Below the pieces are notes generated by a model. The model saw nothing but the letters and a program-made list of their open reading frames with translations, made no database searches and had not been told where the DNA came from. Position numbers and translations under genes: made by a program. Below, one piece after another: positions 3,313-62,100 of a stretch of 64,000 nucleotides of DNA (position 1 is its first letter; each line of letters begins with the position of its first letter). The stretch comes from Azolla caroliniana (taxonomy: Eukaryota; Plantae; Polypodiophyta). Where the stretch lies: positions 19,840,001 to 19,904,000 of the forward strand of contig JBHGNT010000006.1 in NCBI GenBank assembly GCA_043228905.1. The letters are read 5' to 3'.

Positions 3313-3588
3313 TCTGAGTTTGAGCCTCGTCCATTGACTTTTTTCCTATTCCCGATGCTCCACTTCAAACCCTTGTTGTTCTGATCCACCCAAATTCTTT
3401 TACTAGTCCATCAAAACTAGTATTGCTCTCCTCTTTAAGGGCAAAAGTTTGGGAATTATATTCATGTAAAATCTCATTGCCCAACAGGTCATAACTAATA
3501 TGTATGGGTTTAATGATGCTAGTGATTGTTTTGAATTGATGGTATGATCTTTTCTTACATGACCCATTGCTTCTTATTCAGAATAATT

Positions 3589-6442: not shown

Positions 6443-6543
6443 GAGTATGAAAACCAGAGCTCTCTCTCTCTACAAAAACAAAAGACTCTCTCTCTCTCTC
6501 TCTACAAAAACAAAAATCTCTCTCCCTCTCTACAAAAACAAAA

Positions 6544-6580
<37 letters not shown>
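6003..6580 (+). repeat. (CA)n/(CT)n microsatellite-rich promoter and 5'UTR of the WRKY gene, with three CT-run+ACAAAAACAAAA units
   Basis: Direct inspection; G-box CACGTG near 6305. Confidence 0.8.
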
Positions 6581-6581
<1 letters not shown>

Positions 6582-6582
6582 G

Positions 6583-31642: not shown

Positions 31643-31777
31643 TGTCGGGGTAGTTGTGGTTCGTGCGGCAAAGTCGCGGGGACTAAGGTTAAGGGGAGTT
31701 GAAGAAACTTAAGTTTAATAAGGCTTGTATGGTGATGATAGAATGGTTAAGGATAGTAAGATGAAGAGTTACAAGTA

Positions 31778-31822
<45 letters not shown>

Positions 31823-32024
31823 CGAGAGAGAGACGAGCATAGATAAAAGATAGAGACAATGTATGATTCAAGAAAGAAGATTGAGACAAAGTATGATTCT
31901 AGAAAGAAGATCGAGACAAAGTATGATTCAAAGAACAAGAGTATATGATATAAACATGATGTATATTAAAAATATAATATTTTACCAACTTTACAATCCT
32001 TGATCGCAAGATGAATCTTTTCAA

Positions 32025-32097
32025 TACCGACCCTTGATTTGAACCCTCGACCTCAACTTCGAAACGAGAGGTTCTCCACCCAATGAGCTAGTCTTCT
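32025..32097 (-). promoter_or_regulatory. tRNA-like Pol III A/B-box module in G1 3' LTR (element sense); twin at 44123-44199
   Basis: Minus strand TAGCTCATTGG ... GGTTCAAATC with tRNA-like spacing. Confidence 0.55.
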
Positions 32098-32794
32098 TCA
32101 ATTGATTGTATTATTTTTTTCACTCTCTCTTGATTCCTTCATTCCCTTTTGTTTTCCTTTCCCCTCTTTTTATAAGTATTTCCATGCATATGGTAATGTC
32201 ATGCATGTAATGCATGAGTTACATCTGATGCATGATCGCCATTTGGCGCACATGCATTGCATGTGATGCATGATAGCCATCATGCTCATTTGAGCTCCCA
32301 TGTATTGGGATAAGTATAATGATGGATATAACCGTATGTTATATATAGGGCTCGGCCACAACCGAGAAATAGGATTAACTTTCAGAAAACAGGAATTACA
32401 AAATACACGAAGATAATGGGGAGAAGAGTACACAGGATATTTTACGTGGAAAACCCTAAGTGGGAAAAACCACGGGAGTCCTCAAACTCCAACTATCACT
32501 ATATGCAGAGATGTACAATGATGAAGCTACAAGGCAACAACCTTGAGCTCACTGTCTTCGCCACAGGCGGCGGTAATACACTGAGGCAACGACCTCTTCG
32601 TCTCTCTCTCTCTCTCTCTCTCTCTCGCGGCTGCTCTCACTTCGCCTAAAAATGAGCAACAACATAAAACTGTTTGCCCTAAGTCATATTTATACACATA
32701 TGACTTTCGGGCTATTTACAAATATAGCCTCAAGGGGCCCTTGGCAAACATATTCACAAATATGTCCCCGCATCCGGATCTCTCTCCGGGTACA

Positions 32795-33141: not shown

Positions 33142-36100
33142 TCACTTCGGCATGGGATGTCTCTCCAATCCGATCCTCTTCCGGCATGCTTCCAGCTTGT
33201 CGGGTGTAAGTACCTTGGTCAGCATATCCGACCCGTTCTCGTCCGTGTGGATCTTCGTCAGCACGAACTCCTTGTCTTCTATCCTTTCCCGGATCCAGTG
33301 ATATCTTCGCTGGATGTGCTTCGTCCGGGAGTGATAGGCCGCGTTCTTCGCAAGGTGGATGGCACTCTGACTGTCGCAGTAGAGTCGGTACTCCTCTTGC
33401 CGTATTCCGAGCTCTCTAATGAAGTCCTTCATCCATATTATTTCCTTGGCGGCTTCAACAGCCGCCATGTACTCCGCCTCTGTGGTTGACAACGCAACCG
33501 TCTTCTGCAGCCTCGACTGCCACGAAACAGCTCCCCCTCCATACGTCATCACATACCCTGATGTGGACCGGCTGGTATCTGCATCAGCCGACATATCAGA
33601 ATCAGTAAAGCCGTCGAGTTCGGGCTTACCGGAGCCGAATCGGAGGCACACGTTTGCCGTGCCCTTCAGGTATCGGAGTATCCACTTGGCCGCGTTCCAA
33701 TGCTCTCTGCCGGGATTGCTCATGTACCGGCTCACCACTCCGACTGCATATCCTATGTCCGGTCTCGTACACACCATGGCGTACATCAAGCTCCCGACGG
33801 CTGAGGCATACGGCACTTCCATCATATCCTCCTTTTCAGCCTTTGTCTTGGGACTTTGCTTGCTGGTCAGCTTGCAGTTTGCCGGGAGGGTCGATCCGAC
33901 CGGTCTTGCTTCCGACATGTTGAACCGTTGAAGCACCTTTGTCACGTACTTCTCCTGTGACAGCCACAACTGCTTCTTCTTCCGGTCCCGGATGATGTGC
34001 ATCCCTAGTATTTGCCTCGCCGGACCCAGGTCCTTCATTGAGAAGGTTCGGTGAAGCGCTTTCTTCAGCGCCCGTATCTTGACCTGGTCCCGTCCGACGA
34101 TCAACATGTCGTCCACGTACAGGAGGAGTATTAGAGAGTCTCCTCCTTCGAACTTCTTCACAAACACGCAGTGGTCGGACTGCGTTTTGAGGTACCCTTC
34201 GTCGGTCATGAAGGAGTCAAACTTTCGGTACCATTGCCGGGGAGCCTGCTTTAGTCCGTAAAGGCTCTTCTTCAACCGGCATACCAGGTGCTCCTTCCCT
34301 TTCTTCTCGAATCCTTCCGGTTGCTGCATGTAGATCTCTTCTTCGAGGTCACCGTGAAGGAATGCCGTCTTCACGTCCATCTGTTCTACCTCGAGGTCCA
34401 TGCTTGCCGCTATGCTCAGCACCGTCCGGATGGAGGTCATCTTCACTACCGGGGCAAATATCTCGTCGAAGTCGACGCCCTTCTTCTGCTGGAACCCCTT
34501 CACCACGATCCTGGCTTTGTATCTCGGGGGGTTTCCGGCATCTCCCGGTTTCAGCTTGAACACCCACTTGTTTCGAAGTGCCCGCTTTCCTTTCGGCAAC
34601 TCCACAAGTTCATATGTGTGGTTCTCATGCAGGGAATCCATCTCATCCTGCATGGCACTCAACCACCTGCGGCTCTGGGTGTCGTGCTTTGCTTCTTCAA
34701 AGCTCTCCGGCTCCCCCTCGTCGGTTAGCAGCACGTGCTCTGGTTCCGGAAATCTCCGGGGGGCCCTTCTCTCTCTTAGAGGATATCTCCTTTCCGGAGC
34801 TTCAGTAACCGGTTCTTCCGATTCTTCTTCATCCGAATCAATTTCGGGATCGGGGCCGGTTCCGGTATTATTTTCATCTTCTTCGGCCGGTTCTGTTTCT
34901 TCACCGTCTTCGGCCGGATCCTCGAGTGCTAACCGGTCTCTTGCCGGTCGGGACTGCTCCTCGTAGAGTTGATCCTCACCGGTCGACTTGGAGCTCTTCA
35001 TCTTCTTCTCCGACTCCCAGTCGGCGAGTGTCTTGTCCTCCATGAAGATGATATCTCGACTCCTGAATATCTTCTTGTCGACCGGGTCCCATACTCGGTA
35101 GCCGAACTCGTCGTCGCCGTAACCGAGGAATATGCATTGCCGGGTCTTTGGATCTAGCTTTCCTCTCCGGTCCTTTGCCACATGCACGTATGCGAGACAC
35201 CCGAACACTTTCAGATGCCGGTAGGACACTTCCTTACCGGTCCACACTTTCTGCGGCGTGTCTCCGTCCAAAGGTACTGAGGGTGATCTGTTTATCACGT
35301 ATGTCGCCGTCGACATTGCCTCAGCCCAAAACCCCTTGGGTAATTTCGCATGCGCCAGCATACTCCGGACCCTCTCCATTATGGTCCGGTTCATCCTCTC
35401 GGCCAGCCCGTTCAGTTCCGGCGTCTTCGGCACAGTAAACTCGAGCCGGATTCCCTTCGAGCGACAGTACTCCTGGAACTGCCCCCGGTATTCCCCTCCG
35501 TTATCCGCTCGTATCGCTTTCAGCTTCTTGCCGGATTCCCTTTCCACTCTCGCGTGGAGTTCTTTGAAGACGGACAATACTTGGTCCTTTGTCTTCAACG
35601 GTGCCGTCCACAGTCTTCGGCTGTGATCATCTATGAATGTTACGAAGTACTGGGCTCTGCCATGTGACTTCGTTTCTACCTGACACACGTCGGTGTGCAC
35701 CAACTCCAATGGTGCGCTACGTCTCGTCGGTGGCCTTGAGTGGAAGGAGGTTCGGTTCTGCTTACCGGCCAGGCAATCGGTGCACTTCTCCAGGTGCACA
35801 TGCTTCACTGGGATAAGGTTGTCTTCTGCAAGCCTCTTCATCCCCTTCTCACTCATGTGACACAGTCTTTTGTGCCACAGCTCACCGGCAGTGTCGGCTG
35901 CCACATTCAGCTCTTCCGGACATAACCGGGCATTCATCAGGTACAGTGTGTTGTCTTTCCGGGCCCGAGCCACTATCAGGCTCCCTTTGCTGAACTTCAT
36001 GACACCATTCCGGATGCTACCCGTGTAGCCTTCATCATCTAGCCTCCCGGCCGAGATCAGGTTCAATCGGACCTCCGGAACGTGTCGCACATCTTTCAGC

Positions 36101-37215
36101 AGCATCTTGCATCCGATTGATGTCATCAGCCACACGTCTCCTATGCCGGCAATCCGGCACGTACCTTCATTTCCCATCCGGACACAGCCATGCTCACCGG
36201 CTGTGTAGGATGAGAAGTATTTCTTCTCCGGGGTCAGGTGGAACGACGCTCCGGAATCGACCACCCAGGTCATCTCTACACCGGCAAGGTTCAGCTCCCT
36301 CTCTTCGGTAATGAGCATTATCTCTTCTTCACTTGCCGCGAGTGCCGTCGTTCCTTTCCGGTCCTGCCCTCGCCGATCCGAACCTCTCCGGTCCGTGGCT
36401 CCCCGGTATGCACCGTTTCTCTCCGGTGATTTCTTCGAATCGGTGTCGTCGACTCCGTTGTCTTTTCGGTAATGCCGACAATTCTTCCGGAAGTGCCCCG
36501 GCTTCCCACAGTGGAAGCATGTTGGCCTTCCTCTTGACTGCGACCGGGTTCCCGACTTCTCCCGTCTTTGCGGACTCCGGTTCCACTGTCTTCCCCGTTC
36601 TGATTCGGTAAGCAGCGCCTTCGAGTCGGAGGCCGGTTCTTTATCTCTCCGACGCGCTTCTTCGTTCAAAATACTTGTCTTTACCGTTTGTAGAGACAAG
36701 TTATCTTCGGTGCAGGAGGTGCTGAGAGTCACCACCAAGTTCTCCCAGCTGTCCGGCAATGTACACATCAGGATGATGGCTTGCATTGCATCCTCCAACG
36801 GGAACTTGATCGCCGCAAGCTGGTTCACGAATCCCATGAACGTGCTTACGTGTTCCACCATATTCTCGCCGTCCCGGTACTTGAGGTTCACTATCTTCCT
36901 CATCAGGGAGGTCCGGTTCAACGCATTCTTCCTCTCATAGAGGCCCGACAGCTTCTTCCACATCTCATAGGCGTTCGTATCGTTCGCCACATGTTGCAGG
37001 ACACTTACATCGACATATTGCCGGATCGTCGCTACGGCTTTCCGGTTCAGGAGCTTCCACTCCGACTCTATTACCCCCTTGGGTATCTCGGCATTGTCGA
37101 TCGGTTCGTATAGATCTCGGACGATGAGAAGGTCTTCCATCTTTATCTTCCAGTCGGCGTAGTTCTGTGAGTTCAACACCATCATGCCCGGAGGCCCACT
37201 ACCGCCGCCTTCCAT
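33142..37215 (-). CDS. Copia Gag-Pol polyprotein (1357 aa, intact)
   Basis: CCHC knuckle CFHCGKPGHFRKNC, protease WVVDSGAS, integrase DDE, RT YVDD, RNase H. Confidence 0.96.
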   Translation of the reverse strand: MEGGGSGPPGMMVLNSQNYADWKIKMEDLLIVRDLYEPIDNAEIPKGVIESEWKLLNRKAVATIRQYVDVSVLQHVANDTNAYEMWKKLSGLYERKNALNRTSLMRKIVNLKYRDGENMVEHVSTFMGFVNQLAAIKFPLEDAMQAIILMCTLPDSWENLVVTLSTSCTEDNLSLQTVKTSILNEEARRRDKEPASDSKALLTESERGRQWNRSPQRREKSGTRSQSRGRPTCFHCGKPGHFRKNCRHYRKDNGVDDTDSKKSPERNGAYRGATDRRGSDRRGQDRKGTTALAASEEEIMLITEERELNLAGVEMTWVVDSGASFHLTPEKKYFSSYTAGEHGCVRMGNEGTCRIAGIGDVWLMTSIGCKMLLKDVRHVPEVRLNLISAGRLDDEGYTGSIRNGVMKFSKGSLIVARARKDNTLYLMNARLCPEELNVAADTAGELWHKRLCHMSEKGMKRLAEDNLIPVKHVHLEKCTDCLAGKQNRTSFHSRPPTRRSAPLELVHTDVCQVETKSHGRAQYFVTFIDDHSRRLWTAPLKTKDQVLSVFKELHARVERESGKKLKAIRADNGGEYRGQFQEYCRSKGIRLEFTVPKTPELNGLAERMNRTIMERVRSMLAHAKLPKGFWAEAMSTATYVINRSPSVPLDGDTPQKVWTGKEVSYRHLKVFGCLAYVHVAKDRRGKLDPKTRQCIFLGYGDDEFGYRVWDPVDKKIFRSRDIIFMEDKTLADWESEKKMKSSKSTGEDQLYEEQSRPARDRLALEDPAEDGEETEPAEEDENNTGTGPDPEIDSDEEESEEPVTEAPERRYPLRERRAPRRFPEPEHVLLTDEGEPESFEEAKHDTQSRRWLSAMQDEMDSLHENHTYELVELPKGKRALRNKWVFKLKPGDAGNPPRYKARIVVKGFQQKKGVDFDEIFAPVVKMTSIRTVLSIAASMDLEVEQMDVKTAFLHGDLEEEIYMQQPEGFEKKGKEHLVCRLKKSLYGLKQAPRQWYRKFDSFMTDEGYLKTQSDHCVFVKKFEGGDSLILLLYVDDMLIVGRDQVKIRALKKALHRTFSMKDLGPARQILGMHIIRDRKKKQLWLSQEKYVTKVLQRFNMSEARPVGSTLPANCKLTSKQSPKTKAEKEDMMEVPYASAVGSLMYAMVCTRPDIGYAVGVVSRYMSNPGREHWNAAKWILRYLKGTANVCLRFGSGKPELDGFTDSDMSADADTSRSTSGYVMTYGGGAVSWQSRLQKTVALSTTEAEYMAAVEAAKEIIWMKDFIRELGIRQEEYRLYCDSQSAIHLAKNAAYHSRTKHIQRRYHWIRERIEDKEFVLTKIHTDENGSDMLTKVLTPDKLEACRKRIGLERHPMPK

Positions 37216-37509
37216 TTTCTGTGTTACCGTTGCTCTGATACCAGTTTGTTATATATAGGGCTCGGCCACAACCGAGAAATAGGATTAACTTTCAGAAAAC
37301 AGGAATTACAAAATACACGAAGATAATGGGGAGAAGAGTACACAGGATATTTTACGTGGAAAACCCTAAGTGGGAAAAACCACGGGAGTCCTCAAACTCC
37401 AACTATCACTATATGCAGAGATGTACAATGATGAAGCTACAAGGCAACAACCTTGAGCTCACTGTCTTCGCCACAGGCGGCGGTAATACACTGAGGCAAC
37501 GACCTCTTC

Positions 37510-37544
<35 letters not shown>

Positions 37545-38044
37545 GGTTGCTCTCACTTCGCCTAAAAATGAGCAACAACATAAAACTGTTTGCCCTAAGT
37601 CATATTTATACACATATGACTTTCGGGCTATTTACAAATATAGCCTCAAGGGGCCCTTGGCAAACATATTCACAAATATGTCCCCGCATCCGGATCTCTC
37701 TCCGGGTACATTCGTCATCCGGCTCCGTAACCGGGGTCTTCGTCATCCGGCTCCGTAACCGGGGTCTTCGTCATCCGGCTCCGTAACCGGGGTCTTCGTC
37801 ATCCGGCTCCGTAACCGGGGTCTTCGGGACCGGGGTCTTCGTCATCCGGCTCCGTAACCGGGGTCTTCATCATCCGGCTCCGTAACCGGGGTCTTCATCA
37901 TCCGGATCCGTATCCGGGTACTCTTCATCCGGCTTCATGCCGGGTACTCTTCATCGTCTGGTTCCGTAACCGCAACCGGGCTTGCCGTTATTCATCTTCG
38001 GACATCCCATCCGGAGGGACCGTAAATCCCAACACCGTAAAACA

Positions 38045-38250
38045 AATAACCTAGCTTAGTGGTGTATGGTTTGTGCTTGATATACAAGGTTGAGGGTTCA
38101 AGTCCCTCAATTTTACTTAATACAATATATAGCTTCATTCTTATATCATGAAGCACATTTATTACACACTTTTACAAATAAATAGCCTAGCCTAGTGGTA
38201 TGTACATTGTACATCGTATATAAGGATGTGGCTTCAAGTCTCTCAAATAT
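38045..38250 (+). promoter_or_regulatory. Two tandem tRNA-like A/B-box modules (136-bp period) in G1 3' LTR, antisense to the element
   Basis: A boxes TAGCTTAGTGG (38052) and TAGCCTAGTGG (38188); perfect T-arm GAGGG-TTCAAGT-CCCTC in unit 1. Confidence 0.65.
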
Positions 38251-38298
38251 TATTAAATACAACATTTAAGCTCATTTTTATATCGTGATGCACATTCT

Positions 38299-41200
38299 TC
38301 ACGACACCCACCCCCTCTGAACTTGCACATTGGTTGTGCAGAGTTCGTCCAACACTTCTTCCGATTCTTTTAGTTCTTCTACTTCTTCATAAAATTCAGG
38401 CTCTAATGACTCCCTCCTTTTAAATATTTTAATCCTTTTTCCTGCAATTGGGATACGAATTTCTGTCCCATCTAATTCATTGAGGAAATATGTGGCTTTA
38501 TCTGTTATTTTCCTAACTTCATAAGGTCCAAACCATCTTTTTGCAAACTTCCGAATAGTACTGTATTGATTATCTAGGCTATTATCATATACTAATACCC
38601 AATCTCCCTCTTGCACCTTTCTTGGTCGTATTCTTTTCATCTTGTCAAATCTGTCCTTATTCTTGATTCTTGCCTCTTTCAATCTAGTAGCTACTTTTTC
38701 TATGTCTTCTATCCTTGATTGAAGTTGTCGTATTCGAACCGCAAGTAAATCTTCCCTACTCATTTCCGATTCCCAAGGCAACACAGCCCATGTAGTTATC
38801 TTTTCTTCAATTGGCATTATTGGCTTCTGTCCTGTGATTAATTCTGCAGGCATATATCCAGTAACAGTGCTGTGAGTTGTCCTATCAGCCCATAGTGCAT
38901 AGGGTAAGGTTTTTGGCCAATCACTAACCCGTCCTCTACATGCCTTTGCCAAAGCTTTGACTATTGGCCCATGTCCCCTTTCTACCTTTCCATTAGCTTC
39001 TGGATTGTACGCCGTTGTCAAAGAAAGCCGAATTCCTATTTTGTCGAAAAAATCTTGAGCTTCCGCAGAATTGAGTTCTCCCCTATCTGCCACTATCTTC
39101 CCGATACATCCATATCTACAAACAATGTCCTCCAAGATGAATTGACATACTCCTAATGTCCCTTTTGTTCTCAATGAACGACCTTCCACTTGATTTGTTA
39201 GATCTTCTCTAGCAAGAACCAAGTATCTCTTTTGTCCTACTCCAAGTGGCATTGTTACCAAATCTATCATCCACTTGTAATGCACCCCCGGTGAGTATGT
39301 TGGGTGTAATTCATCACAAAATTTTACATTTGAATAATATTGACAAGTGGGACAAGTTTCCACATACTTTTTTATTTGCTCATAGTATCGAGGCCACCAA
39401 AATCGTTCTTTAATCTTACTGAAAGTGGCCCACACTCTTCGATGACCAGCCCATTCTTTGTCATGCAGCTCTTTGATTATCTCCTTTCTTTGCCCTTCAG
39501 AACCTATTACTCTTTGCGGGTTTCCAGTCTTGGTTTTCGGATGTCGCCATAGATATCCTTCATGCAGGAAGAACTTATGGGCTTTCTTGCGAAACTGTGC
39601 GAACTCTTTTCCAGATCGACCTTTGTACTTGTCAGGGGTTTGTAGGTATTTCCCTATTTCCTTGAATTCTTCTTCATACTCCTCTTCTAGAAACTGCATT
39701 CCTCCTTCCCGAGTAATGCTTGTGGTAAGGACTGTTTGTTCTTTGTCCTCATCGTCCGAGTCTGGAATCTCCTCTTCCTCATACCTTGCTCTTGATAACA
39801 TATCTGCTACTGCATTTCTATTCCCAGAGATATGTCGAACTTCAGGGTTGATTGATCTAATATAGATACACCATCTTAACATGGCTTGATCTGGATACCT
39901 TTCTTCCCTATCTTGTTGGCTTATCACCCATCCAATTCCAATGGGACTAGAGTCTACTGTGAGATATATGGGTCGGGTGTAGTCTGGTTGCTTTAATGGT
40001 GGAGCTTGTGCCAAGTAGTACTTCAATTTCTTCATTGCCTCTGAATGCTCTTCACTCCATTCAAATGTCTCTCCTTTTCTCAGGAGTCTATATAAAGGTT
40101 CAGATAAATGGGCATAATGCGGAATCCATTTACAGTAAAAAACACATACCCCCAGAAACCTTCGTACTTCTGAGATGGATGTACATTCCTCTTGCATATT
40201 TTGAATTGCATTGACCTTGGTTGGGGATGGCTTTCTCCCATACGGGCCACACATATGACCAACTATTAATATCTCTTTTGACCCAAATATTGACTTCGCC
40301 CCTGATAAGGTCAAATGCACTTCTTCCATCCTTGATAGCACCTTCTCACAATCCTTGATATGATCAGCAACGAATTGACGGAAACCACTTTCGTCCAATT
40401 CCTCGTTCTTCTCTTCCTCCTTGCATCCCTTAATTGGAACATCATCTAGAAAAGGCATTGTAATATGAGGAATAAAATCACGAAGTACCTTGTTCATTCC
40501 ATTCATCATCTACGCCACTGAGTTGGTCGCTCCTTGCGGCAAGGTGCACATCCGTACTAACCCTATAGGTGTCTTGATAGAAGTTATATCTCGACTTTTG
40601 ATAGCAAGTTGAAATTGATCATACCCGGAATAAAGGTCTCCCATTGAATATATAGCTCTTCCTGCAAACATCTCAGCAAACTCATCCACAATTGGCCCTA
40701 CTCCCGAGTTTCGGATTGTTACCTTATTCACGGGTTGCATATCTTAGATAAATCGGAGTCGCCCATCTTTCTTTAACACAGTGAACCATCGACTCGAGTA
40801 AGGAGCGTTCAATGGTTCCAAGATACCCATCCTTATCTTTTCTTTCAAAAGTTCTAATAGTTGAGGGATTCTAGCCCTAGGCATGGGTATTGGCTTAAAG
40901 TTCCATGGAATATGAGGGATAGTGAATATAACCATGGGCTCCACAATTTCTGGATCCACACACCCTATTTCTTCCGGTTGGAATGCCAACGCCTTTCCAT
41001 GCCTTTTTAACATCTCCCTGAACTGCTTTTCTTCAACGGGTAATAGGAAGTCACCCCCTCCTATTTTCATCCCTTGTATTGTTTCCGGAGTAAACACATG
41101 TCCTACCTTTCGTGGGTCTCTGATCATTGGCTCTGTGGCTGCTTCTTTGATTGCCTTTTCACTATCCCCTGGAAGTGGAGCAGCAATAGGACGAACCTTC

Positions 41201-41583
41201 TTCTCCACTGTCTTGTACTTTGTTAGTACATGTGCTTCATGATCCTTTCGAGCAACTTCTTCAATGACCTCATACATCTTGATTGAATGGATAGGAACTT
41301 GGATTTCGTTGTCTTCTTCCATTGCTTCCAAATGAGTTATTGTATCTTCAAAACTTAATTCTTCAAACATATCCTGAATTTCTTCATCATCATCTATTAA
41401 TCCAGAACACTTAAAGTACTCGAAAGCATTTTGTATTTTATTATTATTTACTTTTAGTATAAAAGTAGCACCATTAGATGAGATTGTACAAGGAATATCT
41501 TTATTTACATTATTATTTATGGGGTTTTCTTTTATGCTCGAGCTATCACAGCCCCTACCTGTAAAAGCCCTATCTAAAAATCC
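38299..41583 (-). pseudogene. G1 pol (RT, internally deleted RNase H, integrase) in the -1 frame relative to gag-PR
   Basis: ORF pieces 40744-41370, 40510-40740 and 38299-40509 in one frame separated by single stops; DLYSGYDQ, LPQGATNS, FLDD, HHCC, YNPEANGKVER and GPY motifs. Confidence 0.88.
41519..41583 (-). promoter_or_regulatory. Putative -1 programmed ribosomal frameshift signal (G GAT TTT plus pseudoknot)
   Basis: Slippery heptamer 41583-41577 immediately before the gag-PR stop, 6-nt spacer, 12-bp stem, loop GGGG complementary to downstream CCCC; -1 frame open into pol. Confidence 0.7.
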
Positions 41584-43688
41584 TGGGAAAACACTTCATC
41601 CATCTCTTGAATTGGATGTTCCCTCAAGCATTCTTTGTTTCTTTCATGGTTGGGTCTCACGGTTAAGAATTGGACAATCTTTCTTCCATCTTGACTTTTG
41701 ATTCTCGCGAAAGCCGAACCATCATCAATAACCTTTGTTTCCATCCTCACTGCGGTGATGTAGGGCTAGCCAAGGATGACGGGGTAGGTTGATCGATCCT
41801 GCACAAAGAAATTTTGATTCACCGAGACATCACCAATTGTTACCTTCACACTAGGACATGCTCCGAATAGATCCTCCGTAGTTTCTGTGGCAGCTCTTAT
41901 TTTCCACCCATGATTCTTGTCGATCGGCCATCGTCCTCGAGCGTAAAATTCCGATGACATCATGTTAATCTCTGATCCATGATCGATCAAAGCAATACAT
42001 GGAATTTGCTGCTCCCCAATTTTTGCAGGTGCCTCCGTTGTTGCTCGAGCCCAATGGTCCCTTGTATAGTGACTCCTATCCCCTTCATGGACGCCAACAT
42101 CATTCTGGTTTTTTACACTTGCAGCATTGATGGTGCCACCATACAAATCTTGGAGTGTTGCTGCACACCCTCCCGTAATTTCCTCCGTCACCTGTCTCTT
42201 CCTTCTAATAATATCTATGATAACTTCATGAAATTCTTTCTTTGCTATACCCAACACTTCTCTTAAAGTAAATTCTACCTTAATATTTAATATTCTTGTT
42301 TCTAGTACCTTTTTTATATCCGTCGTTGTTTCTATGTCTGAGGCAAGCTTGAAAGATGGGCCTGTCTTTCCTTTTACTTTATCAGCTTCCTTCGGCTCAA
42401 TAGCACCCTTTTCCATCTCCCTTCTCTTTTGTTCTCGTGTCTCATGTCTCTTTGTCGGATCAGCTTCCTCAACTCTCTTCCGCTTCTCTTCCACTAGCAC
42501 ATCTTGTGCATTCACTTGGGCGAATGCTGATAGCGCGTCTACTGGATCATTCCATCCAGTGAAGTTTCGTATTTCATCTCCCGCTCTTTTTAATTCATCC
42601 ACTCGAACCTTCCCTTTTCTTGCATAATCCATCACATCTTGCCAAAAGCCAGATCCACCATATGAGTCTTCTACGCGCAATCCTAAGGTTGCCACGGATT
42701 GTATCGCTTGAGTCGTTTCTCTCTCGGCATCTTCCATTAGCCTTTTCATTCCTCCTCGCCCGAAGTTGAGTTGAAGTGGTTGTCGAGTCTCAGTTGAGTG
42801 AATCTTGCCATCTTGATAATAGATTTTATTATGATTAAGAGCATCCCTATGCTCTTGACAATCTTTCTTCTGGTGGTCGATACTATCACACCACATACAC
42901 CTTCGGACCATTCCACCTCCCTGCCTTGATGAAGTCGAGCTTTGTCCCGATTCTAGCTTCGTCACTTTGATCGACAAGTCTTTCATGCCTTTCACTAATT
43001 CGTGTAAGAGTGATTCTTCTACTTTCTTTTCTCCCGACTCATTCCCCATTTCTTCATCATTTCTGTCGGGCAACTCCATAAACCATAACTTTCTTTTGCA
43101 GAAATGGGTGCACGTCCTTTTCACCTCCTCCCAGTCTTCGGTAAGTCCACTTGGACTGTTCTGATCTTCTAAAAGCATTCCCAAGTCCTTCCTGTCTTTA
43201 ATATTAGTAGCTTGTAGAAACAATATGACTTTATCTGGCACTATTATATTTCTATCTCTAACATTTAGTTGCTCAAATCTTTCAGAAAACTCTTTTAATA
43301 CTTCCAAAACACTTAAATGTTTATTAGACTCTACCCAATCCATGAAGGCTCGCCTTGTCATCCTTGACATATCGTTGAGGTTGTATTCATTTAGCAATGC
43401 TCTTTCAAAAGTCACCCATGTCTGATGTTCCCTTTGTAGCTCCTGGATCCTTTCTTGTAGCCCAATCGCAGCGACTCGACTAAAGCTATTAATTTTTGCA
43501 GCTTCGTCAACACCGCGTTTAAGCATTTCTTCATTATAAATCTTCAGAAATCTTGTTAAATTTATACCTTCGAAGATTCCTACTCGTGCGAGAATATTGT
43601 CGACGGCTTTGTCGATGCTTGCCATCATCCCTTGTTCTCGCATCACTCGTTCCATCATCCTACACATAAGCCTCATTTGCTCCTCCAT
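41574..43688 (-). pseudogene. G1 gag-protease ORF (one premature TAG at 41766-41768; natural stop 41574-41576)
   Basis: CMWCDSIDHQKKDC knuckle, ALIDHGSEIN aspartic protease; frame continues past the TAG to ...SQDF*. Confidence 0.88.
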
Positions 43689-43706: not shown

Positions 43707-43724
43707 TTCACGTCGGGTTCACCA
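43707..43724 (-). promoter_or_regulatory. Primer-binding site complementary to the tRNA-Trp 3' end
   Basis: TGGTGAACCCGACGTGAA 4 nt inside the 5' LTR; matches the plant cytosolic tRNA-Trp end ...TTCACGTCGGGTTCACCA (recalled from memory). Confidence 0.82.
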
Positions 43725-43863
43725 AATGTGTCAGGGTAGTTGTGGTTCGTGCGGCGAAGTCGCGGGGACTAAGGTTAAGGGGAGTTGAAGAAACTTAAGT
43801 TTAATAAGGCTTGTATGGTGATGATAGAATGGTTAAGGATAGTAAGATGAAGAGTTGCAAGTA

Positions 43864-43920
<57 letters not shown>

Positions 43921-44443
43921 CGAGAGAGAGACGAGCATAGATAAAAGATAGAGACAATGTATGATTCAAGAAAGAAGATTGAGACAAAGTATGATTCTAG
44001 AAAGAAGATCGAGACAAAGTATGATTCAAAGAACAAGAGTATATGATATAAACATGATGTATATTAAAAATATAATATTTTACCAACTTTACAATCCTTG
44101 ATCGCAAGATGAATCTTTTCAATACCGACCCTTGATTTGAACCCTCGACCTCAACTTCGAAACGAGAGGTTTCTTATCCACCCAATGAGCTAGTCTTCTT
44201 CAATTGATTGTATTATTTTTTTCACTCTCTCTTGATTCCTTCATTCCCTTTTGTTTTCCTTTCCCCTCTTTTTATAAGTATTTCCATGCATATGGTAATG
44301 TCATGCATGTAATGCATGAGTTACATCTGATGCATGATCGCCATTTGGCGCACATGCATTGCATGTGATGCATGATAGCCATCATGCTCATTTGAGCTCC
44401 CATGTATTGGGATAAGTATAATGATGGATATAACTGTAAAACA

Positions 44444-44650
44444 AATAACCTAGCTTAGTGGTGTATGGTTTGTGCTTGATATACAAGGTTGAGGGTTCAA
44501 GTCCCTCAATTTTACTTAATACAATATATAGCTTCATTCTTATATCATGAAGCACATTTATTACACACTTTTACAAATAAATAGCCTAGCCTAGTGGTAT
44601 GTACATTGTACATCGTATATAAGGATGTGGCTTCAAGTCTCTCAAATATT
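44444..44650 (+). promoter_or_regulatory. Two tandem tRNA-like A/B-box modules in G1 5' LTR U3
   Basis: A box 44451-44461, stem-loop TTGTG-CTTGATA-TACAA 44470-44486, T-arm 44491-44507, then TTTT; second unit A box 44587-44597. Confidence 0.65.
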
Positions 44651-44709
44651 ATTAAATACAACATTTAAGCTCATTTTTATATCGTGAAGCACATTCTTCA
44701 CGACAGCGC

Positions 44710-48959: not shown

Positions 48960-51900
48960 TGTTGAAAACGAATGCTCGGCCACAACCGAGGAATAGGATC
49001 AACACTTGAAAACAGAAATACAGAATGCACGAGACTATAGAAAGAGAGAGTACACAGAATGTTTTACGTGGAAAACCCTAAATGGGAAAAAACCACGGGA
49101 GTTCTCAGACTCCAACCATCACTATGAACAGGGATATACAATGGTGAGGCTACAAGGCAACAACCTTGTGCTCACTGTCTTCGCCACAGGCGGCGGCAGT
49201 ACACAGAGGCAACGACCTCTTCGTCTCTCTCTCGGCTACTCACTTTTCTCTCTCTCTCTCAAAATGAGCAACAACATAAAACTGTTTGCCCTAAGTCATA
49301 TTTATACACATATGACTTTCGGGCTATTTACAAACATAGCCTCAAGGGCTCTTGGTAAACATATTCACAAATATGTCCCCGCATCCGGATCTCTCTCCGG
49401 GTACATTCGTCATCCGGCTCTGTAACCGGGGTCTTCATCATCCGGAGCCGTATCCGGGTACTCTTCATCCGGCTTCATGCCGGGTACTCTTCATCATCCG
49501 GTTCCGCATCCGGGTACTCTTCATCCGGCTCTGGTTCCGTAACAGTCTCCGGGCTTGCCGTCATTCATCTCCGGACATCCCATCCGGAGGGACCGAAATC
49601 CCAACAAACTCCCCCTTCACTTCGGCATGGGATGTCTCTCCAACCCGATCCTCTTCCGGCATGCTTCCAGCTTGTCGGGTGTGAGCACTTTGGTCAACAT
49701 ATCTGAGCCGTTCTCGTCCGTGTGGATCTTCGTCAGCACGAACTCCTGGTCTTCTATCCTTTCCCGGATCCAGTGATATCTTCGCTGGATGTGCTTCGTC
49801 CGGGAGTGGTAGGCCGCGTTCTTCGCAAGGTGGATGGCACTCTGACTGTCGCAGTAGAGTCGGTACTCCTCCTGCTGGATACCGAGCTCTCTAATGAAGT
49901 CCTTCATCCATATTATTTCCTTGCTGGCTTCAACAGCCGCCATGTACTCCGCCTCCGTGGTTGACAACGCAACCGTCTTCTGCAGCCTCGACTGCCACGA
50001 AACAGCTCCACCTGCATACGTCATCACATACCCTGATGTGGACCGGCTGGTATCTGCATCAGCCGACATATCCGAATCGGTAAAGCCGTCGAATTCGGGT
50101 TTACCGGAGCCGAATCGGAGGCACACGTTTGCCGTGCCCTTCAGGTATCGCAGTATCCACTTGACCGCCTTCCAGTGCTCTTTGCCGGGATTGCTCATGT
50201 ACCGGCTCACCACTCCAACTGCATATCCTATGTCCGGTCTTGTACACACCATTGCGTACATCAAGCTTCCGACGGCAGAGGCATATGGTACTGTCATCAT
50301 GTCCTCCTTCTCAGCCTTTGTCTTGGGGCTTTGCTTGCTGGACAACCTGCAGTTTGCCGGTAGGGTTGACCCGACCGGTCTTGCTTCCGACATGTTGAAC
50401 CGGTGAAGCACCTTTGTCACGTACTTCTCCTGTGACAGCCACAACTGCTTCTTCTTCCGGTCCCGGATGATGTGCATCCCTAGTATTTGCCTCGCCGGAC
50501 CCAGGTCCTTCATTGAGAAGGTTCGGTGAAGTGCCTTCTTCAGCATCCGTATCTTGACCTGGTCCCGTCCGACGATCAACATGTCGTCCACGTACAGGAG
50601 GAGTATTAGAGAGTCTCCTCCTTCGAACTTCTTCACAAACACGCAGTGATCAAACTGCGTTTTGTGGTACCCTTCGTCGGTCATGAAGGAGTCGAACTTC
50701 CGGTACCATTGCCGGGGAGCCTGCTTCAGTCCGTAAAGGCTCTTCTTCAACCGGCATACCAGGTGCTCCTTCCCTTTCTTCTCGAATCCTTCCGGTTGCT
50801 GCATGTAGATCTCTTCTTCGAGGTCACCGTGAAGGAATGCCGTCTTCACGTCCATCTGTTCTACCTCGAGGTCCATGCTTGCCGCTATGCTCAGCACCGT
50901 CCGGATGGAGGTCATCTTCACTACCGGGGCAAATATCTCGTCGAAGTCGACGCCCTTCTTCTGCTGGAACCCCTTCACCACGATCCTGGCTTTGTATCTC
51001 GGGGGGTTTCCGGCATCTCCCGGTTTCAGCTTGAACACCCACTTGTTTCGAAGTGCCCGCTTTCCTTTCGGCAACTCCACAAGTTCATATGTGTGGTTCT
51101 CATGCAGGGAATCCATCTCCTCTTGCATGGCACTTAACCACCTGCGGCTATGGGTGTCAAGCTTTGCTTCTTCAAAACTCTCCGGCTCCCCCTCGTCGGT
51201 CAGCAGCACGTGCTCAGGTTCCGGAAATCTCCGGGGGGCCCTTCTCTCTCTTAGAGGATATCTCCGTTCCGGAGCTTCGGTAACCGGCTCCTCCGTTTCC
51301 TCTTCATCCGAATCCATTTCGGGATCGGGGCCAGTTCCGGTATCAGTTTCATCTTCCTCGGCCGGTTCTGTTTCTTCACCGTCTTCGGCCGGATCCTCGA
51401 GTGCTAACCGGTCCCTTGCCGGTCGGGACTGCTCCTCGTAGAGTTTATCCTCACCGGTCGACTTGGAGCTCTTCATCTTCTTCTCCGACTCCCAGTCGGC
51501 GAGTGTCTTGTCCTCCATGAAGATGATATCTCGACTCCTGAATATCTTCTTGTCGACCGGCTCCCATACTCGGTAGCCGAACTCATCGTCGCCGTAACCG
51601 AGGAATATGCATGGCCGGGTCTTTGGATCCAACTTTCCTCTCCGGTCCTTTGCCACATGCACGTATGCGAGACACCCGAACACCTTCAGATGCCGGTAGG
51701 ACACTTCCTTACCGGTCCACACTTTCTGCGGCGTGTCTCCGTCCAAAGGTACTGAGGGTGATCTATTTATCACATACGTCGCCGTCGACATTGCCTCAGC
51801 CCAAAATCCCTTGGGTAATTTCGCATGCGCCAGCATACTCCGGACCCTCTCCATTATGGTCCGGTTCATCCTCTCGGCCAGCCCGTTCAGTTCCGGCGTC

Positions 51901-54368: not shown

Positions 54369-55538
54369 AATACGACCTTACCGTTCGTGCTCCCTTACCA
54401 AAAGTATCAATTGGAGGGCAAAGTAAATTGAATGTGTAGTCCACATGCATCGCATGGGGACTAGCCATTGAGGACAATGTTACCATGTTGGTACACCTCC
54501 AAAAGTGCCAACATACATATCATTCATATGTTTTGTTATGGTATATCGCACTTCATCAATGTGTGTGGAGGATTGCTCACCAAATATCCCTGAAGAGTGG
54601 ACAAAATAGACACGTAAGTTTGGTACTCTATTACATCTACAAATGTATAAATGAAAGTATATGTTATGGTAGTAGTTAATTAGTACATAACAAAGTTCGT
54701 AGTAGAGTTGTAGCTAATTAACTTGAAGTTGGAACAGTCCTCTAACCGCTAAATAGCAAAGTCCGTTGTCGTGAAGGATTCCTACCATATGAGGAAACAA
54801 AGTCGGATGCGTGAGAACGCGGGTGTGCACAAGTGCACGTCTTTTGTACAATATGTAAATAGCATAATAATGATAGGGTTTTGGTGATTACTATGAAAGA
54901 ACTATTCGATAGGTACTTTAATACCACACGGATGGAGAAGAATAAAGAGGATTGATGGGAGAGAATCGAGGGGAGATTTGTGAGAAAATCGGTTATGATA
55001 AAGACGATGTAATGGCCTTCCCTTGTGCTATAAAAGGGGAGGCCTTGAACTGTTTTGGGGATCCAAGATTTGGGAGAACAAAGCCCTGCCCATTTGAGTG
55101 CCAAAGTTCTCTCTCCTCTCTCTGTACCGTGCTCTCTACTGCGGAACAAGAAGGTGAATCCTCTGCTCGCGCTGGAAGTCCGCGTGCTCCCGAGTAGAGG
55201 ATCATCACTCTATGTGTGTGTGCGTCTATTGAGCTAAGAGAGAGCTCCTTCCCCGGCTGCGCCCGGTTGTACTCATTGTGTGTTCTACACCTAATCGAAC
55301 CGAGACTCGTTGTTCTGACTCTATGTTCTTTTCTTATGTTTTTCGTTCTATTTTGTTCTATTTTGTTCTGTGTCTGTTTGTGTCCAAGCAACGTTAGGAT
55401 CTCTCAAGGTCGCATGCAAGTGGAGACAGTCGGTTGGCTCCACTTCCCTTTTTCTTCCTCTGTGTTCAACTCCTTGCTTCAAGACCCTCGTGGTCCTGCC
55501 CCATTTCTATCCATACGCGCGGAAAAGTGTGACATCTT

Positions 55539-57020: not shown

Positions 57021-59100
57021 ACGGTTGATTGGGCCGCAGTTAAAGGACTATGCAGTCATATCGACAAACGACGAAAACTAGAAAACGTGAGGCCATCGAC
57101 AGTTGGTCCAACTGCGGACACAAGGGCTAAGTTGGCGCCGACCCGGACGGAGGAAACGAGAAGGTGGCTCAAGTCGAGCCAAGTTCCGACCACCATGGTC
57201 GTGGGACTGTCCGGAGGCATGGTTCTAAAGGAGCTGATGAAGATGGTGCGCGATCTCCAGATTGCTCAGGCCCGAAGGGACGGCGGAGGTCAATCGTGTG
57301 ACCGACAGACGCCAGTTAACCAATGGTGTATATGGTGTGATCTCATTGGCCACGCCCGAAGAGATTGCGCCGACTTCGGCGAAGCGCTTAGGAGTAACGT
57401 GGTGTACTTTTGGAATGGTCGGGTGTAGACAAGCGACACCCGAAGGCCGCTCGAAGTAAACACCAAACGAGGTGGCATGAAGAGGATAATGGAGGAGGCA
57501 GCGACGCGTCATGTCGAGGTCATTCAATACTCGGCCTCGGTTGGCATCCGTATGGGCGGAGAAAAAACCACTGGCTCCGGGGCTAACTCCGGATTTTGGT
57601 CGGTAGTACTAGAGGGTTTCCCTAGAAAGAAGCTGAAGGAGGAAGTGAACCGCACTGAGAGGTGGGTTCATGACGTCACCGGATGAAGCGATCCGGTTGA
57701 GGAGAAGACCGGCTTCGTAGAAGCCGCGTGCCAGAACTACGAAGTTTTGGTCGATGACAAGTGGGCCGAAAAGGCCGGAGGGGCAGGTGAGGTATGACAC
57801 CCGAAGCGGACCCAAGAGAAGTGATTCACAAGAGAAAGAAAAGGGGAAGTTTCCGAGCTTCCGATTAAGCTCGGAGATAAAGAAAATGACGGACCTAGAG
57901 GAGCGAATCCTCGATAATCGCATGGAACTCACGTTGTGGGAAGTGCTAGGAATAGCAAAGAAAGAGTTCCACGACGGCATCGTCGATCTCGTAAAGAGAA
58001 AATGGCTCGTGATAGAGCTACAACCGGAGAAACTGGTCGAAGTAAGGACGGCACTACTCGACGAGATGGCAATGGAAGATGCGTTTACCGAGAGCCACTA
58101 CATGAAGCCACATTGGGCGAGAGCAACAACGGAGACCCCGGTTCGGATCCGGTGGAACCGGTGGTGGCATTGATCGACCATGGGTCAGAAATTAACCTAA
58201 TATCCATGGACTTTTATAAGAAGGGAAAATGGCCGATTAACACCAACCATGAGTGGAAGATACGTGCGGTTGGGCGAGCCACAGAGGAGCTGCACAGAGC
58301 GTGCCCAAATGTCCGTGTAAGGGTCGGCGACATCGAGATAGACCATCACTTTTTTGTGCAAGAAACATCCTTCCGGTCATCCTCAGCGAACCCTACATCA
58401 AAGCAGCTTGAATGGAGACCAAGGTGTTGGACAACAGCTTTGCATACACGAGGGTGAAGAGCAAGGACAGACGACACTCCGTCCAATTTCTGACGGTCCA
58501 CCCAAACCATGAGCATAATCGGGATACTCTCAGCAACGATAGCCGAGAGGATTGGGGCTATCAAGGCGTGGGGCCACGATAGTTCCCACAACCAGAACAA
58601 ACCCCACACCTGTACCATAGGTAGGAAATTTTGGATCTCCATTAATGGAGGTTGTACCATAACCGGCATCCACGACCGAGAGAAGAGGCATGTCGAATGA
58701 CGCTTGAGGGCATGCAGTGCCTTGGGCCCCGATGACGAGATCGGTGGTGTTGTGGAGGCGGTTTCATTCTATGACATCCTTGGAGAAATCGCGAGGGTAG
58801 CCAAAGAGGATCTGAGTGAAGATCGGATGATTTTGGTCAATTCAGTGGAGATGTACGAAGTCATCACAGACTTTGGGATGATGTTCGGGTCGGATCGGAC
58901 GGCCCGAGTTGACACCAAGTACAAGATTGTGGACCGGAAGGTGAGACTAGTCACGGCTCCCTTGCCGGAGGACAGTTGGGAACGGATGAAAGGGGTCGCG
59001 ACAGACCTGAGTTTACGAATCCGGCTGGCATAGGACACCGGTTCACCGACGAGACGTTGCGGAAGCTCAAGATCGGTGGGGCTAGCTTCTTACTGCCCGT

Positions 59101-62100
59101 TGTCGTGTTGTTCCGCTTGCGCATGAGAGACTAAGGCAGAATTGCAAGGGCCTTGAACCGAGGAATAACCGAATAGAGGGAGGAGTGACGCAGGAACAAT
59201 GGCCGAGCCACACACACACTCAAATACACATAGCTCGCAACTGATGCGACAACGGAAAAAAAACAAGATGAATATATATATATATATATGATTAGGGTTA
59301 CAAGCGGTAGGCCAGTGAGCGACAACGCTCTAACACTCACACACACACAGAGAAACGCGAGATGGAGACTCTGCCGGAAGCACTCAGGCTTTCCACGAAG
59401 CAGAGGCAACCTCCCGAAAACCTGCAGAGCGCAACAGTAGAGGAAGACAGAGGAGAAGGGCTTGGTCCCGGTTCGACAGCACTTCATCCTCGACAGAACG
59501 CGATACCGACTCCGCCCCTATCCCTCTCTTATATAGCCCAAGGAAGGAAAGACGGTAGAACCAATCACACCACCATTATTCTCTATCCTTTCGGACAGAG
59601 ATACTCCTCGATTTCCTACCTAATAAATACGTGTTACCTAGGATATTCGCATCGGCCGGTCTGTACCTAACTATGTACAATATATCAAACTTTGTGCCCG
59701 CGTGCAAGGGCTAGTTCACGCACAATATTCCCGGATTCCGCCTCGGGACGATTTACTTCTCGACATCCGCCCCCATCAAACCACGCATCCACCGGTATGC
59801 GCCAACTAGACCTTAGCCGGAGAAACCGGCCCGTTCTCATCATTCGTTCTCCAAATCGTTGTCCTTCCCGATCCGGTCATCACTGTCATCCACGCTCTCT
59901 GGGTCCGGTTCGTCCTCATGCCGCTTCTTGAATGCCTTGATCCTCTTCCCGGACATCGGCACGGCTATCCTTGTTTCGTCGAGCTCCACGAGATGGTAGG
60001 TGCCGTTGTTGTTTGCGCTTGTGATTGCGTAAGGCCCGAACCACCTCCTCGCAAATTTCCGCATCGCCTTGTGCTAGTTGTCGAGGCTGCTATCGTAGAC
60101 CAGAACCCATTCACCTTCCTCGATTTTCTTCAGTTGCAGTCGGTGAGTCCGGTTGAATCATCCCTTGTTCCTTGCCCTCGCCGTACGCAGCTTCGTCATT
60201 GCTTGTTCCACGTCCTCCAGTCTTCGCTCAAGCTGTCGAATTCGTGCCGCTAACAGCTCCTCCCGGCTCATCTCATCTCTCCAGCCCACCGCGGCCCACG
60301 AGGAGATCGTTCGCTCCATCGGCATGATCAGCTTTTGCCCGTACATCAGCTCTGTCGGCATGAACCCGGTTACCGAACTGTGCGTAGCTCGGTCCACCCA
60401 CAACGCATAAGGCAGGAGCTATGCCCAATTTCCGACTTGGCCTCCACATGCCCGTACTATCGCTTTTACGATTGGCCCGTGCCCGCACTCCACCTTCCCG
60501 TTCGCCCCCGGATTGTACGCCATGGTGAGTGAGAGTTTAACCCCCAACCGATCAAACAGCTCTTCGGCCTCATGCGCGTCCAGTTCTCCCTGATCAGCTA
60601 TGATCTTCCCTACGCACCCGTACCGGCATACCACCTCTTCGATTAGGAACCAACACATGACCGCGGTCATTTTGTTCTGTAATGCGCGGCCCTCCACCTA
60701 GTTCGTCAGGTCCTCTCGTGCTAGCACAAGGTATCGCACCTGCCCTACTCCCATCGGCATCGTCACCATATCCACCATCCACTTGAAGTGGACGGTCGGC
60801 GAGTAAGTCCGGTGCAGATTGTCCCGATGTCGGATTATGGAGTGCATCTGGCAGCTTTCACAAGTCGTCACGAACTTATGCACGTCCCGGTATAGTCCCG
60901 GCCACTAGTACTTCTCCTCCAACTTCTTGAACATGGCCCATGTCCCGCGATGTTCGGCCCAAGGACTCCCATGGTACGCTGTCACCAATGCCTCCTGCTC
61001 TTCCTTCCTTGCCACTACCCGGAGTGGGACATCGTCTCGCTTCTTCACCCGGCCGCTAATGTCGGTTAATGTATAGCCTCCGTTTTCGGAGAACCAGAAT
61101 TTCATGTCTACAGTATAGGGTTTCCTTCCTATGGTACACTTGTGGGGTTTTTCTAGGGTGTCCGAACTATCGCATCCCCACGCCATGATAGCCCTCTCTA
61201 AAACTCCCCTTGACCTTCGCCGCCGAGGGTCTCGCGGTTGCGTTCGTGGTTCGTCCCCACCGTTAGAAATTGGACGGAGTACCGCCCATCTTGGCTCTTC
61301 ACTCGGGCATATGTTGAACCGTTATCTAGCACCTTCGTCTCCATGCGTGCCACCATGATGTACGGTTCGCCAAGGATCACCGGGTGTGAGGATGTCTCCT
61401 GCACAAAGAAGTGTTGATCAATCTCAACATCGCCATTCTTCACTCGTACATTTGGGCAGTCCCCGTGTAGTTCCTCCGTGGCGCGCGTCGCCACTCATAT
61501 TTTCCACCCGTGCTTGGTGTTGATCAGTAAACCCTTCTTGTAGAAGTCCATGGACATCAGATTGATCTCCGAACCGTGGTCTACCAACGCCACCACCAAC
61601 TTCTGGACGTCTCCGATCCGAACGGGGGTCTCCGTAGTGGCTCTAGCCCAATGCAGCCTCGAATAGTGGCTTTCCGCCAACTCGTCCTCCAGGGCCATAT
61701 CTTCCAGGTGCGTCGTTCGCACCTCCACCGGCTTCTCCGGCTCCGGCTCAGTCGAAAGTCATTTCCGCTTCACCAAGTCCACGATGGAGTCGTGGAACTC
61801 CTTCTTGGCGATCCTGAGCACTTCCCTTAACAACAGCTCCACCTTGTTGTCGAGGATTCGTTCCTCCAGGACCTTTCGTAGATTCGTCGTCCTTTCTATC
61901 TCGGTGCTCAGCTGGTAACCGACCTTCTTTGTCTTGTCCGGTGCGCCAATGGTATCGGCGTCATTCTGCTTCGACCTGAACCGGGTCTCGTACCACTGCG
62001 TGGGTCCGGCCCCTCCGGCTTTTACCAAAACCTCGTAGTTCTGGCACACGGCTTCCACAAAGCTGGTCTTTTCCTTGACCAGGTCGTACCACCCAGTGAC

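Follow-up and report, generated by a model that had tools for sequence, protein, structure and literature searches.

A predicted −1 ribosomal frameshift signal after the protease of Phygy-like Gypsy retrotransposons, and a sister sub-family with pol in the +1 frame

Elements of a Phygy-like lineage of Gypsy retrotransposons, represented by the element G1 in Azolla caroliniana, end their Gag-protease (Gag-PR) frame directly after the heptamer G_GAU_UUU and carry pol in the −1 frame. We propose, with a probability of roughly 0.88, that a minority of ribosomes slips by −1 on this heptamer with the aid of a downstream pseudoknot, which would yield a Gag-PR-Pol protein; this reading is built on the comparison of sequences. 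The relation of the two frames, the heptamer, the position of the stop and the complementarity of the stem arms recur across families. The −1 signal is a known type of signal in an undescribed place. A sister sub-family has pol in the +1 (= −2) frame, and a pseudoknot-linked −2 form would be new.

The window, by which we mean the whole analysed stretch of 64,000 nucleotides, contains G1 and two older copies, G2 and G3. An earlier note on this DNA had claimed that gag-PR of G1 ends at G GAT TTT TAG with the −1 frame open from there. This was confirmed at 41583-41574 on the minus strand, and the stem arms, the loop GTAGGGG and the downstream CCCC that it had described are all present at 41570-41519. 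The features of G1 and the junctions of the other two copies are the following.

44705 to 31643, minus strand: G1 Gypsy element, its 3′ LTR split by a Copia insertion
43728..44705, minus strand: G1 5′ LTR, from blastn to a full copy and a self-match within the window
43708..43724, minus strand: G1 primer binding site, complementary to the 3′ end of tRNA-Trp; tRNA-Trp genes match it
41574..43688, minus strand: G1 gag-protease frame (DUF4100), with a premature stop at 41766-41768
about 42070-41600, minus strand: G1 C-terminal domain of retropepsin fold, the fold modelled from the same region of a sister copy
41577..41583, minus strand: G1 slippery heptamer G_GAU_UUU (G GAT TTT), read directly and conserved in relatives
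41571..41576, minus strand: G1 6-nt spacer, its first codon being the gag-PR stop TAG (41576-41574)
41559..41570, minus strand: 5′ arm of G1 pseudoknot stem 1, GGGCTTTTACAG, predicted pairing
41552..41558, minus strand: G1 7-nt loop GTAGGGG, with the 5′ arm of stem 2 (GGGG)
41540..41551, minus strand: 3′ arm of G1 pseudoknot stem 1, CTGTGATAGCTC, predicted pairing
41525..41539, minus strand: G1 A-rich loop 3, read from the sequence
41519..41524, minus strand: 3′ arm of G1 stem 2, CCCCAT, in which CCCC pairs and AU is a possible extension
38299..41577, minus strand: G1 pol (linker, RT, RNase H, integrase) in the −1 frame, domains taken from an intact sister
38034..38306, minus strand: first piece of the G1 3′ LTR, interrupted by the Copia insertion
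31643..32336, minus strand: second piece of the G1 3′ LTR
61142..61207, minus strand: G3 junction, an old copy with a mutated heptamer, a 6-nt spacer, the same geometry and a GUGGGG/CCCCAC stem 2
58549..58607, plus strand: G2 junction, an old copy with the slippery site partly deleted and the stems retained

G1 belongs to a young Phygy-like Gypsy family but has itself decayed. Past the junction, 277 codons of its −1 frame are open; pol is damaged by stops at 40744-40746 and 40510-40512 and by a deletion near 39893, and the 3′ arm of stem 1 carries one private substitution relative to 27 identical sister copies. The window also holds two Copia-type copies with uninterrupted ORFs, at 33142-37248 (nested within the G1 3′ LTR) and at 49617-53825, which are 94% identical to each other; the LTRs of the latter (48960-49608 and 53722-54370) are 100% identical. 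A 764-aa ORF at 3535-5829 presumably belongs with hAT transposases, which it resembles in its motifs. We interpret 6451-9528 as a host gene that, in view of its WRKYGQK motif, probably encodes a WRKY transcription factor, and 12332-14151 as LINE-like fragments.

The earlier note had given G_GAG_TTT as the slippery site of G3 and had described G2 as having lost its U-run. The letters read so in both copies, but neither state is that of its family. The G3 site is a private mutation, as GGAGTTT is found in 0/29 other G3-like loci, which carry GGATTTT in 24 cases, GGATTTC in 1, GGGTTTT in 1 and other sequences in 3. At the G2 site about 7 nt have been deleted in this copy only, and 25/29 G2-like loci carry GGATTTT. 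The odd sites of both copies are thus the result of decay, and the use of a different heptamer by G3 was ruled out. Folded singly, the three window copies do not exceed their shuffles (z −1.33, 0.10 and −1.49), so the evidence for the signal has to come from the family.

Copies in the same genome were collected with a 301-base G1 query, which gave 300 candidates, of which 40 were scored and 30 fetched; this set is biased towards the junction, since the query contained it. All 29 copies other than G1 end gag-PR at G GAT TTT TAG. Their −1 frame overlaps only six open codons upstream and is open to the end of the locus in 24/29. The exact 20-mer spanning the junction of the G1 family occurs 101 times in the genome. 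Twelve full copies, chosen for both frames being open, have paired LTRs of 95.8-100% identity and a gag-PR of 703-704 aa, and nine of them combine a 704-aa gag-PR with 1152 pol codons in −1. A second set was drawn from metagenomes with peptide seeds of the protease region only, and 80/170 loci were kept. Of these 80 loci, most of which come from one assembly series and are not independent hosts, 63 have pol in −1 and 2 in +1, none has it in frame and 15 lack it; among the 65 scorable loci the −1 pol is open from the slip site in 61 and broken in 2. A single gag-pol frame, for which the earlier note had proposed to look in young copies, is hence seen in 0/29 copies of the same genome and in 0/65 scorable metagenome loci. 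The loci L164 and L168, in which the end of gag-PR almost abuts the polypurine tract and the LTR start, probably derive from the G1 family as non-autonomous elements that lack pol. A search of viral contigs for relatives found none.

Homologous proteins include moss, liverwort and fern records, under the names Physcomitrium, Riccia, Adiantum and Calypogeia. Among the 120 listed of 194 found, 59 end in [DG]F directly before the stop, 30 in [DG]F plus five residues, 2 in VFx and 29 otherwise. Protease, RT and the integrase zinc-binding domain stand in one frame in P0184, a distant singleton (44% identity) with a 1374-aa ORF, which either represents a genuine family with fused frames or is a single copy that carries an indel. 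Fifteen long proteins (P0123-P0137), all with Riccia or Physcomitrium predicted-protein names, join the protease to pol. Judged by their sequences, they are likely annotation artefacts, in which the gene models would skip the frameshift junction at varying points.

Such gene models, which bridge the junction, can also be read in favour of splicing. Pol could be reached through an intron as in Ogre, which has one between GAG-PROT and RT (PMC6317226), with the acceptor-like TTTTTAG at the G1 junction as the 3′ splice site and the stems as its regulators. The cut points of the gene models vary, however, and often delete the C-terminus of the protease. Pol is open directly from the heptamer and the linker is conserved as protein, which leaves no room for an intron. 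Removal of the junction by splicing was an objection that the earlier note had raised. A splice acceptor at this place was found unlikely: the stop behind the heptamer is TAG in no more than 13/34 junction types, TAA and TGA being common, and splicing at TTTTTAG was rejected on this variable stop. Four contig sets covering gag-PR and the junction contain no joint, and one contig, guessed to be RNA, spans the junction ungapped; these data are neutral as evidence. Taken together, we regard access to pol by splicing as very improbable.

The heptamer itself is constrained beyond its coding function. Selection by amino acids only gave 27 non-redundant junctions. G precedes GAT in 26 of these (9.4 expected), although ten different amino acids are encoded there, Asp is encoded with a final T in 27 (15.5 expected) and Phe by TTT in 24 (13.2 expected); P values for these counts are inflated by the relatedness of the junctions. 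The following stop is TAG in 13, TAA in 9 and TGA in 5 of them. Only 10/71 DF pairs elsewhere are encoded as G_GAT_TTY. Synonymous change amounts to 23/97 within the signal versus 3417/6527 in the rest of pol, a reduction to about half. The canonical −1 pattern X_XXY_YYZ is thus found in the zero frame inside the overlap, the G_GA class being accepted, and the 3′ structure expected 5-9 nt downstream is found as a predicted pseudoknot.

For the structure, 9 loci without the heptamer and 2 cut by contig ends were removed from the 80 metagenome loci, and the remaining 69 represent 34 junction types. The predicted geometry consists of a 6-nt spacer, a 12-nt arm, a 7-nt loop, a second 12-nt arm, a loop of about 10-18 nt and a stem 2 of 4-8 bp, and the 6-nt spacing holds in most of the 34 types. 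For both stems, the arms of the same junction pair better than swapped arms (0/100000 permutations). Changes on both sides are seen at 11/12 stem-1 pairs and 4/6 stem-2 pairs, RNAalifold recovers the outer 8 bp of stem 1, and the junction is the top-scoring site within 600 nt in 27/34 types. The predicted stem 2 has matched variants such as ACAGGG/CCCUGU, GCGAGA/UCUCGC, GCAGGA/UCCUGC and CAAGG/CCUUG; in the G1 family it has only four firm pairs. In a fixed-column count it is paired in only 63%, because the length of loop 3 varies. In 16 disjoint sister pairs, pairing is kept at 22/29 changed stem-1 positions, against 8.7 under a uniform null and 22 under a transition-only null; since the result equals the latter, the tree-independent covariation is only suggestive. 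An Rfam scan returned three chance-level matches on two loci only and no family match.

Covariation by itself does not reveal function, and the stems might serve packaging or dimerisation, or an in-frame RNA might be made by transcriptional or reverse-transcription slippage. What speaks against these explanations is that the stems stand at a fixed distance of 6 nt from a heptamer that is conserved at synonymous sites, and that the U-run at the junction is only 3-6 long, which is short for polymerase slippage. We consider them very unlikely.

The earlier note had placed the shift after the protease, and modelling of the protein bears this out. The last 165 aa of ORF1 gave a model with a pLDDT of 88.5, which among PDB folds matches Ddi1 and retroviral proteases best (E 3e-7); the shift therefore lies after the protease. 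This domain was found by fold search only, as sequence searches of the PDB did not detect it, and its Pfam support is weak (6/40 members). The catalytic motif of retropepsins is D-[ST]-G. The putative motif of the present elements is D-H-G, located at 41980-41995 on the minus strand of the window and in the homologues, with the Asp conserved in at least 90%. Compared with Physcomitrium proteins, the protease region shows an identity of about 55-65%.

The assignment of the lineage as Phygy-like Gypsy is made by target site duplications and primer site. Among the 12 full G1-family copies, 4-bp NCGN duplications are exact in 10, have one mismatch in 1 and are missing in 1; they are clear in 4/7 copies of the +1 sub-family. 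All five tested loci with the motif complementary to the primer site are tRNA-Trp(CCA) genes. The tRNA-Trp 3′ motif has 63 matches genome-wide, with clusters at G000:C8:17796786-17823371 and C16:4989495-5105657 and many matches spaced about 1.2 kb apart on C8; these clusters are probable arrays of tRNA-Trp, the primer of the elements. Phygy is characterised by a 4-bp NCGN duplication and a tRNA-Trp primer binding site, with the ORF organisation given as ‘not determined’ (PMC6317226 supplement 5). The G1 family measures about 7.3-7.6 kb, slightly short of the Phygy range of 7656-9968 bp, and the +1 family about 7.9-8.0 kb. An intact sister has DUF4100 in ORF1 and, by Pfam, only RT, RNase H and integrase in ORF2, with neither a chromodomain nor an additional RNase H, and the ORFs of full G1-family copies fill the interior from LTR to LTR. 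The earlier note had taken a switch after the protease to be an unusual layout for plant LTR elements. This fits the REXdb Gypsy table, which lists no lineage with GAG-PROT overlapping RT as the prevailing form (PMC6317226 supplement 5).

By analogy with known signals (PMC5009743, PMC7618472), the −1 shift would proceed as follows. The pseudoknot would resist unwinding while GAU and UUU are being decoded, and the ribosome would pause. Tandem slippage would then move tRNA-Phe from UUU to UUU and tRNA-Asp from GAU to GGA. Some ribosomes would re-pair on GGA UUU and go on into pol, whereas the others would terminate at once; the adjacent stop may stimulate the slip. The expected outcome is a high ratio of Gag-PR to Gag-PR-Pol.

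The locus L148 has a gag-PR frame of 761 codons and 1106 pol codons in +1. A relative with about 70% identity exists in the Azolla genome (L213-L250 and L183-L212; for example G000:C8 near 1484840). There, pol is in +1 in 24/30 loci, the remaining six being broken or unscored, and an exact 19-mer of the junction occurs 78 times; an assembly error as the cause of the L148 frame was thereby ruled out. Eight full copies were fetched and seven parsed; their LTRs are 99.5-100% identical, and a gag-PR of 724 aa is combined with 1150 pol codons in +1 in 5/7. The junction reads CAG GTT TTT GAC TAG with TGA in the −1 frame in 27/30 loci, so that the −1 frame stops immediately, and stem 1 starts 5 nt past the heptamer AG_GUU_UUU. 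In a protease tree the +1 pair nests among −1 elements (98/98 clade; midpoint root, no outgroup).

We find it somewhat probable, from these sequences and by analogy, that a −2 slip driven by the same pseudoknot gives access to pol in the +1 sub-family. According to a re-pairing table, the A-site pairing in a −2 slip is lost with GAU and UUU is retained with GUU. The −2 slip is the best reading, ranked above +1 slippage and re-initiation at an AUG, because GUU keeps the UUU pairing, the site is that of PRRSV and shorter spacers favour −2.

Since +1 and −2 slips yield the same frame, ribosomes could also slip by +1, either within the U-run or upon reaching the stop of GAC_UAG. For L148, a +1 slip would allow the A-site UUU to pair with UUU again, and the stop lies one codon further. 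In the 78-copy family of the Azolla genome, however, a +1 slip would put tRNA-Phe on UUG, while −2 keeps UUU in both members, and the retained 3′ pseudoknot with its spacer shortened by 1 nt fits backward slippage (PMC3458567). A +1 slip is therefore unlikely. Alternatively, translation of pol might start at a nearby AUG, through re-initiation or internally, or pol might not be made at all, the elements being mobilised in trans by −1 families and the pseudoknot being a relic. An in-frame AUG does lie 15-27 nt upstream of the junction in both +1 representatives and in 0/33 other junction types, but the two AUGs are not homologous in position and derive from NAT-GAT codon pairs of gag. Pol is also under purifying selection (dN/dS 0.09 in the core and 0.20 in the linker, L148 versus the Azolla +1 family), and no stems tested were more stable than those of the sub-family (z about −3). 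These points make initiation at the AUG, or the absence of a pol product, quite doubtful.

If the −2 slip is accepted, a living lineage would have switched from −1 to −2, both driven by the pseudoknot. The switch would have taken two linked changes, from G_GAU_UUU to G_GUU_UUU in the site and from 6 to 5 nt in the spacer, and the lineage would have converged on the arterivirus site without a viral protein; we lean towards this scenario. L119 (1255-1330), a single low-coverage contig, has G_GUU_UUC, a 6-nt spacer and pol in −1. It is possibly an intermediate state, and the GUU site thus occurs with the −1 layout too; a search of the Azolla genome for this type gave one short match only. A distant protease ORF from Calypogeia fissa (P0222) ends in KVFY before its stop and resembles the +1 sub-family; on its sequence it is possibly an independent +1/−2 type.

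A −1 switch after the protease would fill in the expression strategy, listed as ‘not determined’, of an LTR lineage that is abundant in non-seed plants. The family provides natural variants of the predicted pseudoknot by the dozen, all read by plant ribosomes, and suggests a reason for which gene-finding programs may place invented introns over such junctions. The sister sub-families form a natural pair with the same structure, in which one base of the slip site and one base of the spacer differ and the pol frame is altered. The pair is suited to testing spacer length as the setter of shift direction, shown so far, in the sources consulted, only in engineered or protein-stimulated systems. If true, the −2 reading would mean that a −2 shift stimulated by RNA structure occurs naturally in a eukaryotic retroelement, and evolution would have confirmed the mRNA-tension model. 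A search of the openly accessible literature found no description of this signal, and the accessible portions of PMC7466625 and PMC12885004 do not mention frameshifts. The 2003 survey by Gao et al. found only +1-frame plant cases, as summarised in the 2016 review (PMC5009743).

Retroviruses and coronaviruses (the long stem 1 of the IBV type; MMTV and HTLV pro-pol) likewise combine a heptamer, a spacer of 5-9 nt and an H-type pseudoknot; here, in contrast, there is a single shift, with the protease in the Gag frame, in a plant LTR retrotransposon. A single shift with the protease in the Gag frame is also the arrangement of the avian sarcoma-leukosis viruses. Heptamers of the G_GA type and spacers of 5-9 nt are established for −1 signals, and shifts after the protease exist in beta- and deltaretroviruses (PMC5009743). 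The same G_GAU_UUU is decoded by plant ribosomes in an umbravirus and a dianthovirus (PEMV RNA2 and RCNMV), and in PEMV a nearby zero-frame stop stimulates shifting (PMC5009743). These viruses are described as using a bulged stem-loop and long-range pairing kilobases away, whereas a compact local pseudoknot is predicted here. Among the plant Gypsy lineages of REXdb (PMC6317226), Ogre and Retand have Gag-PR separate from RT as here, but Ogre by an intron and Retand mostly by a single stop, while Tcn1 and Selgy have overlapping frames that meet before the protease.

For the +1 sub-family, the closest parallel is the −2/−1 signal for nsp2TF in arteriviruses. The PRRSV site is AG_GUU_UUU or GG_GUU_UUU (PMC7618472, PMC4937337, PMC6675879), the A-site re-pairs in −2 and the −1 frame stops immediately, and all these features are seen in the sub-family. 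In the PRRSV accounts consulted, shifting depends on nsp1beta/PCBP at a C-rich motif that lies 10-11 nt past the site, with no obvious structure, whereas the sub-family has a pseudoknot at 5 nt; a C-rich motif is absent 10-11 nt downstream of its heptamer, where stem 1 occupies the position. The +1 site may therefore act like the arterivirus site, but is not a member of that group. In Trichomonas vaginalis viruses and phage tail-assembly genes, relatives also differ between −1 and −2; these are not retroelements, and the relevant part of PMC5009743 mentions for them no case in which the spacer is shortened while the pseudoknot is conserved. On the slippery sequence U6A, Lin, Gilbert and Brierley (2012) observed a −2 optimum at spacers 1-2 nt shorter than for −1, pseudoknots included (PMC3458567). 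Their −1/−2 switching was obtained in synthetic constructs, whereas here natural sister elements differ in this manner.
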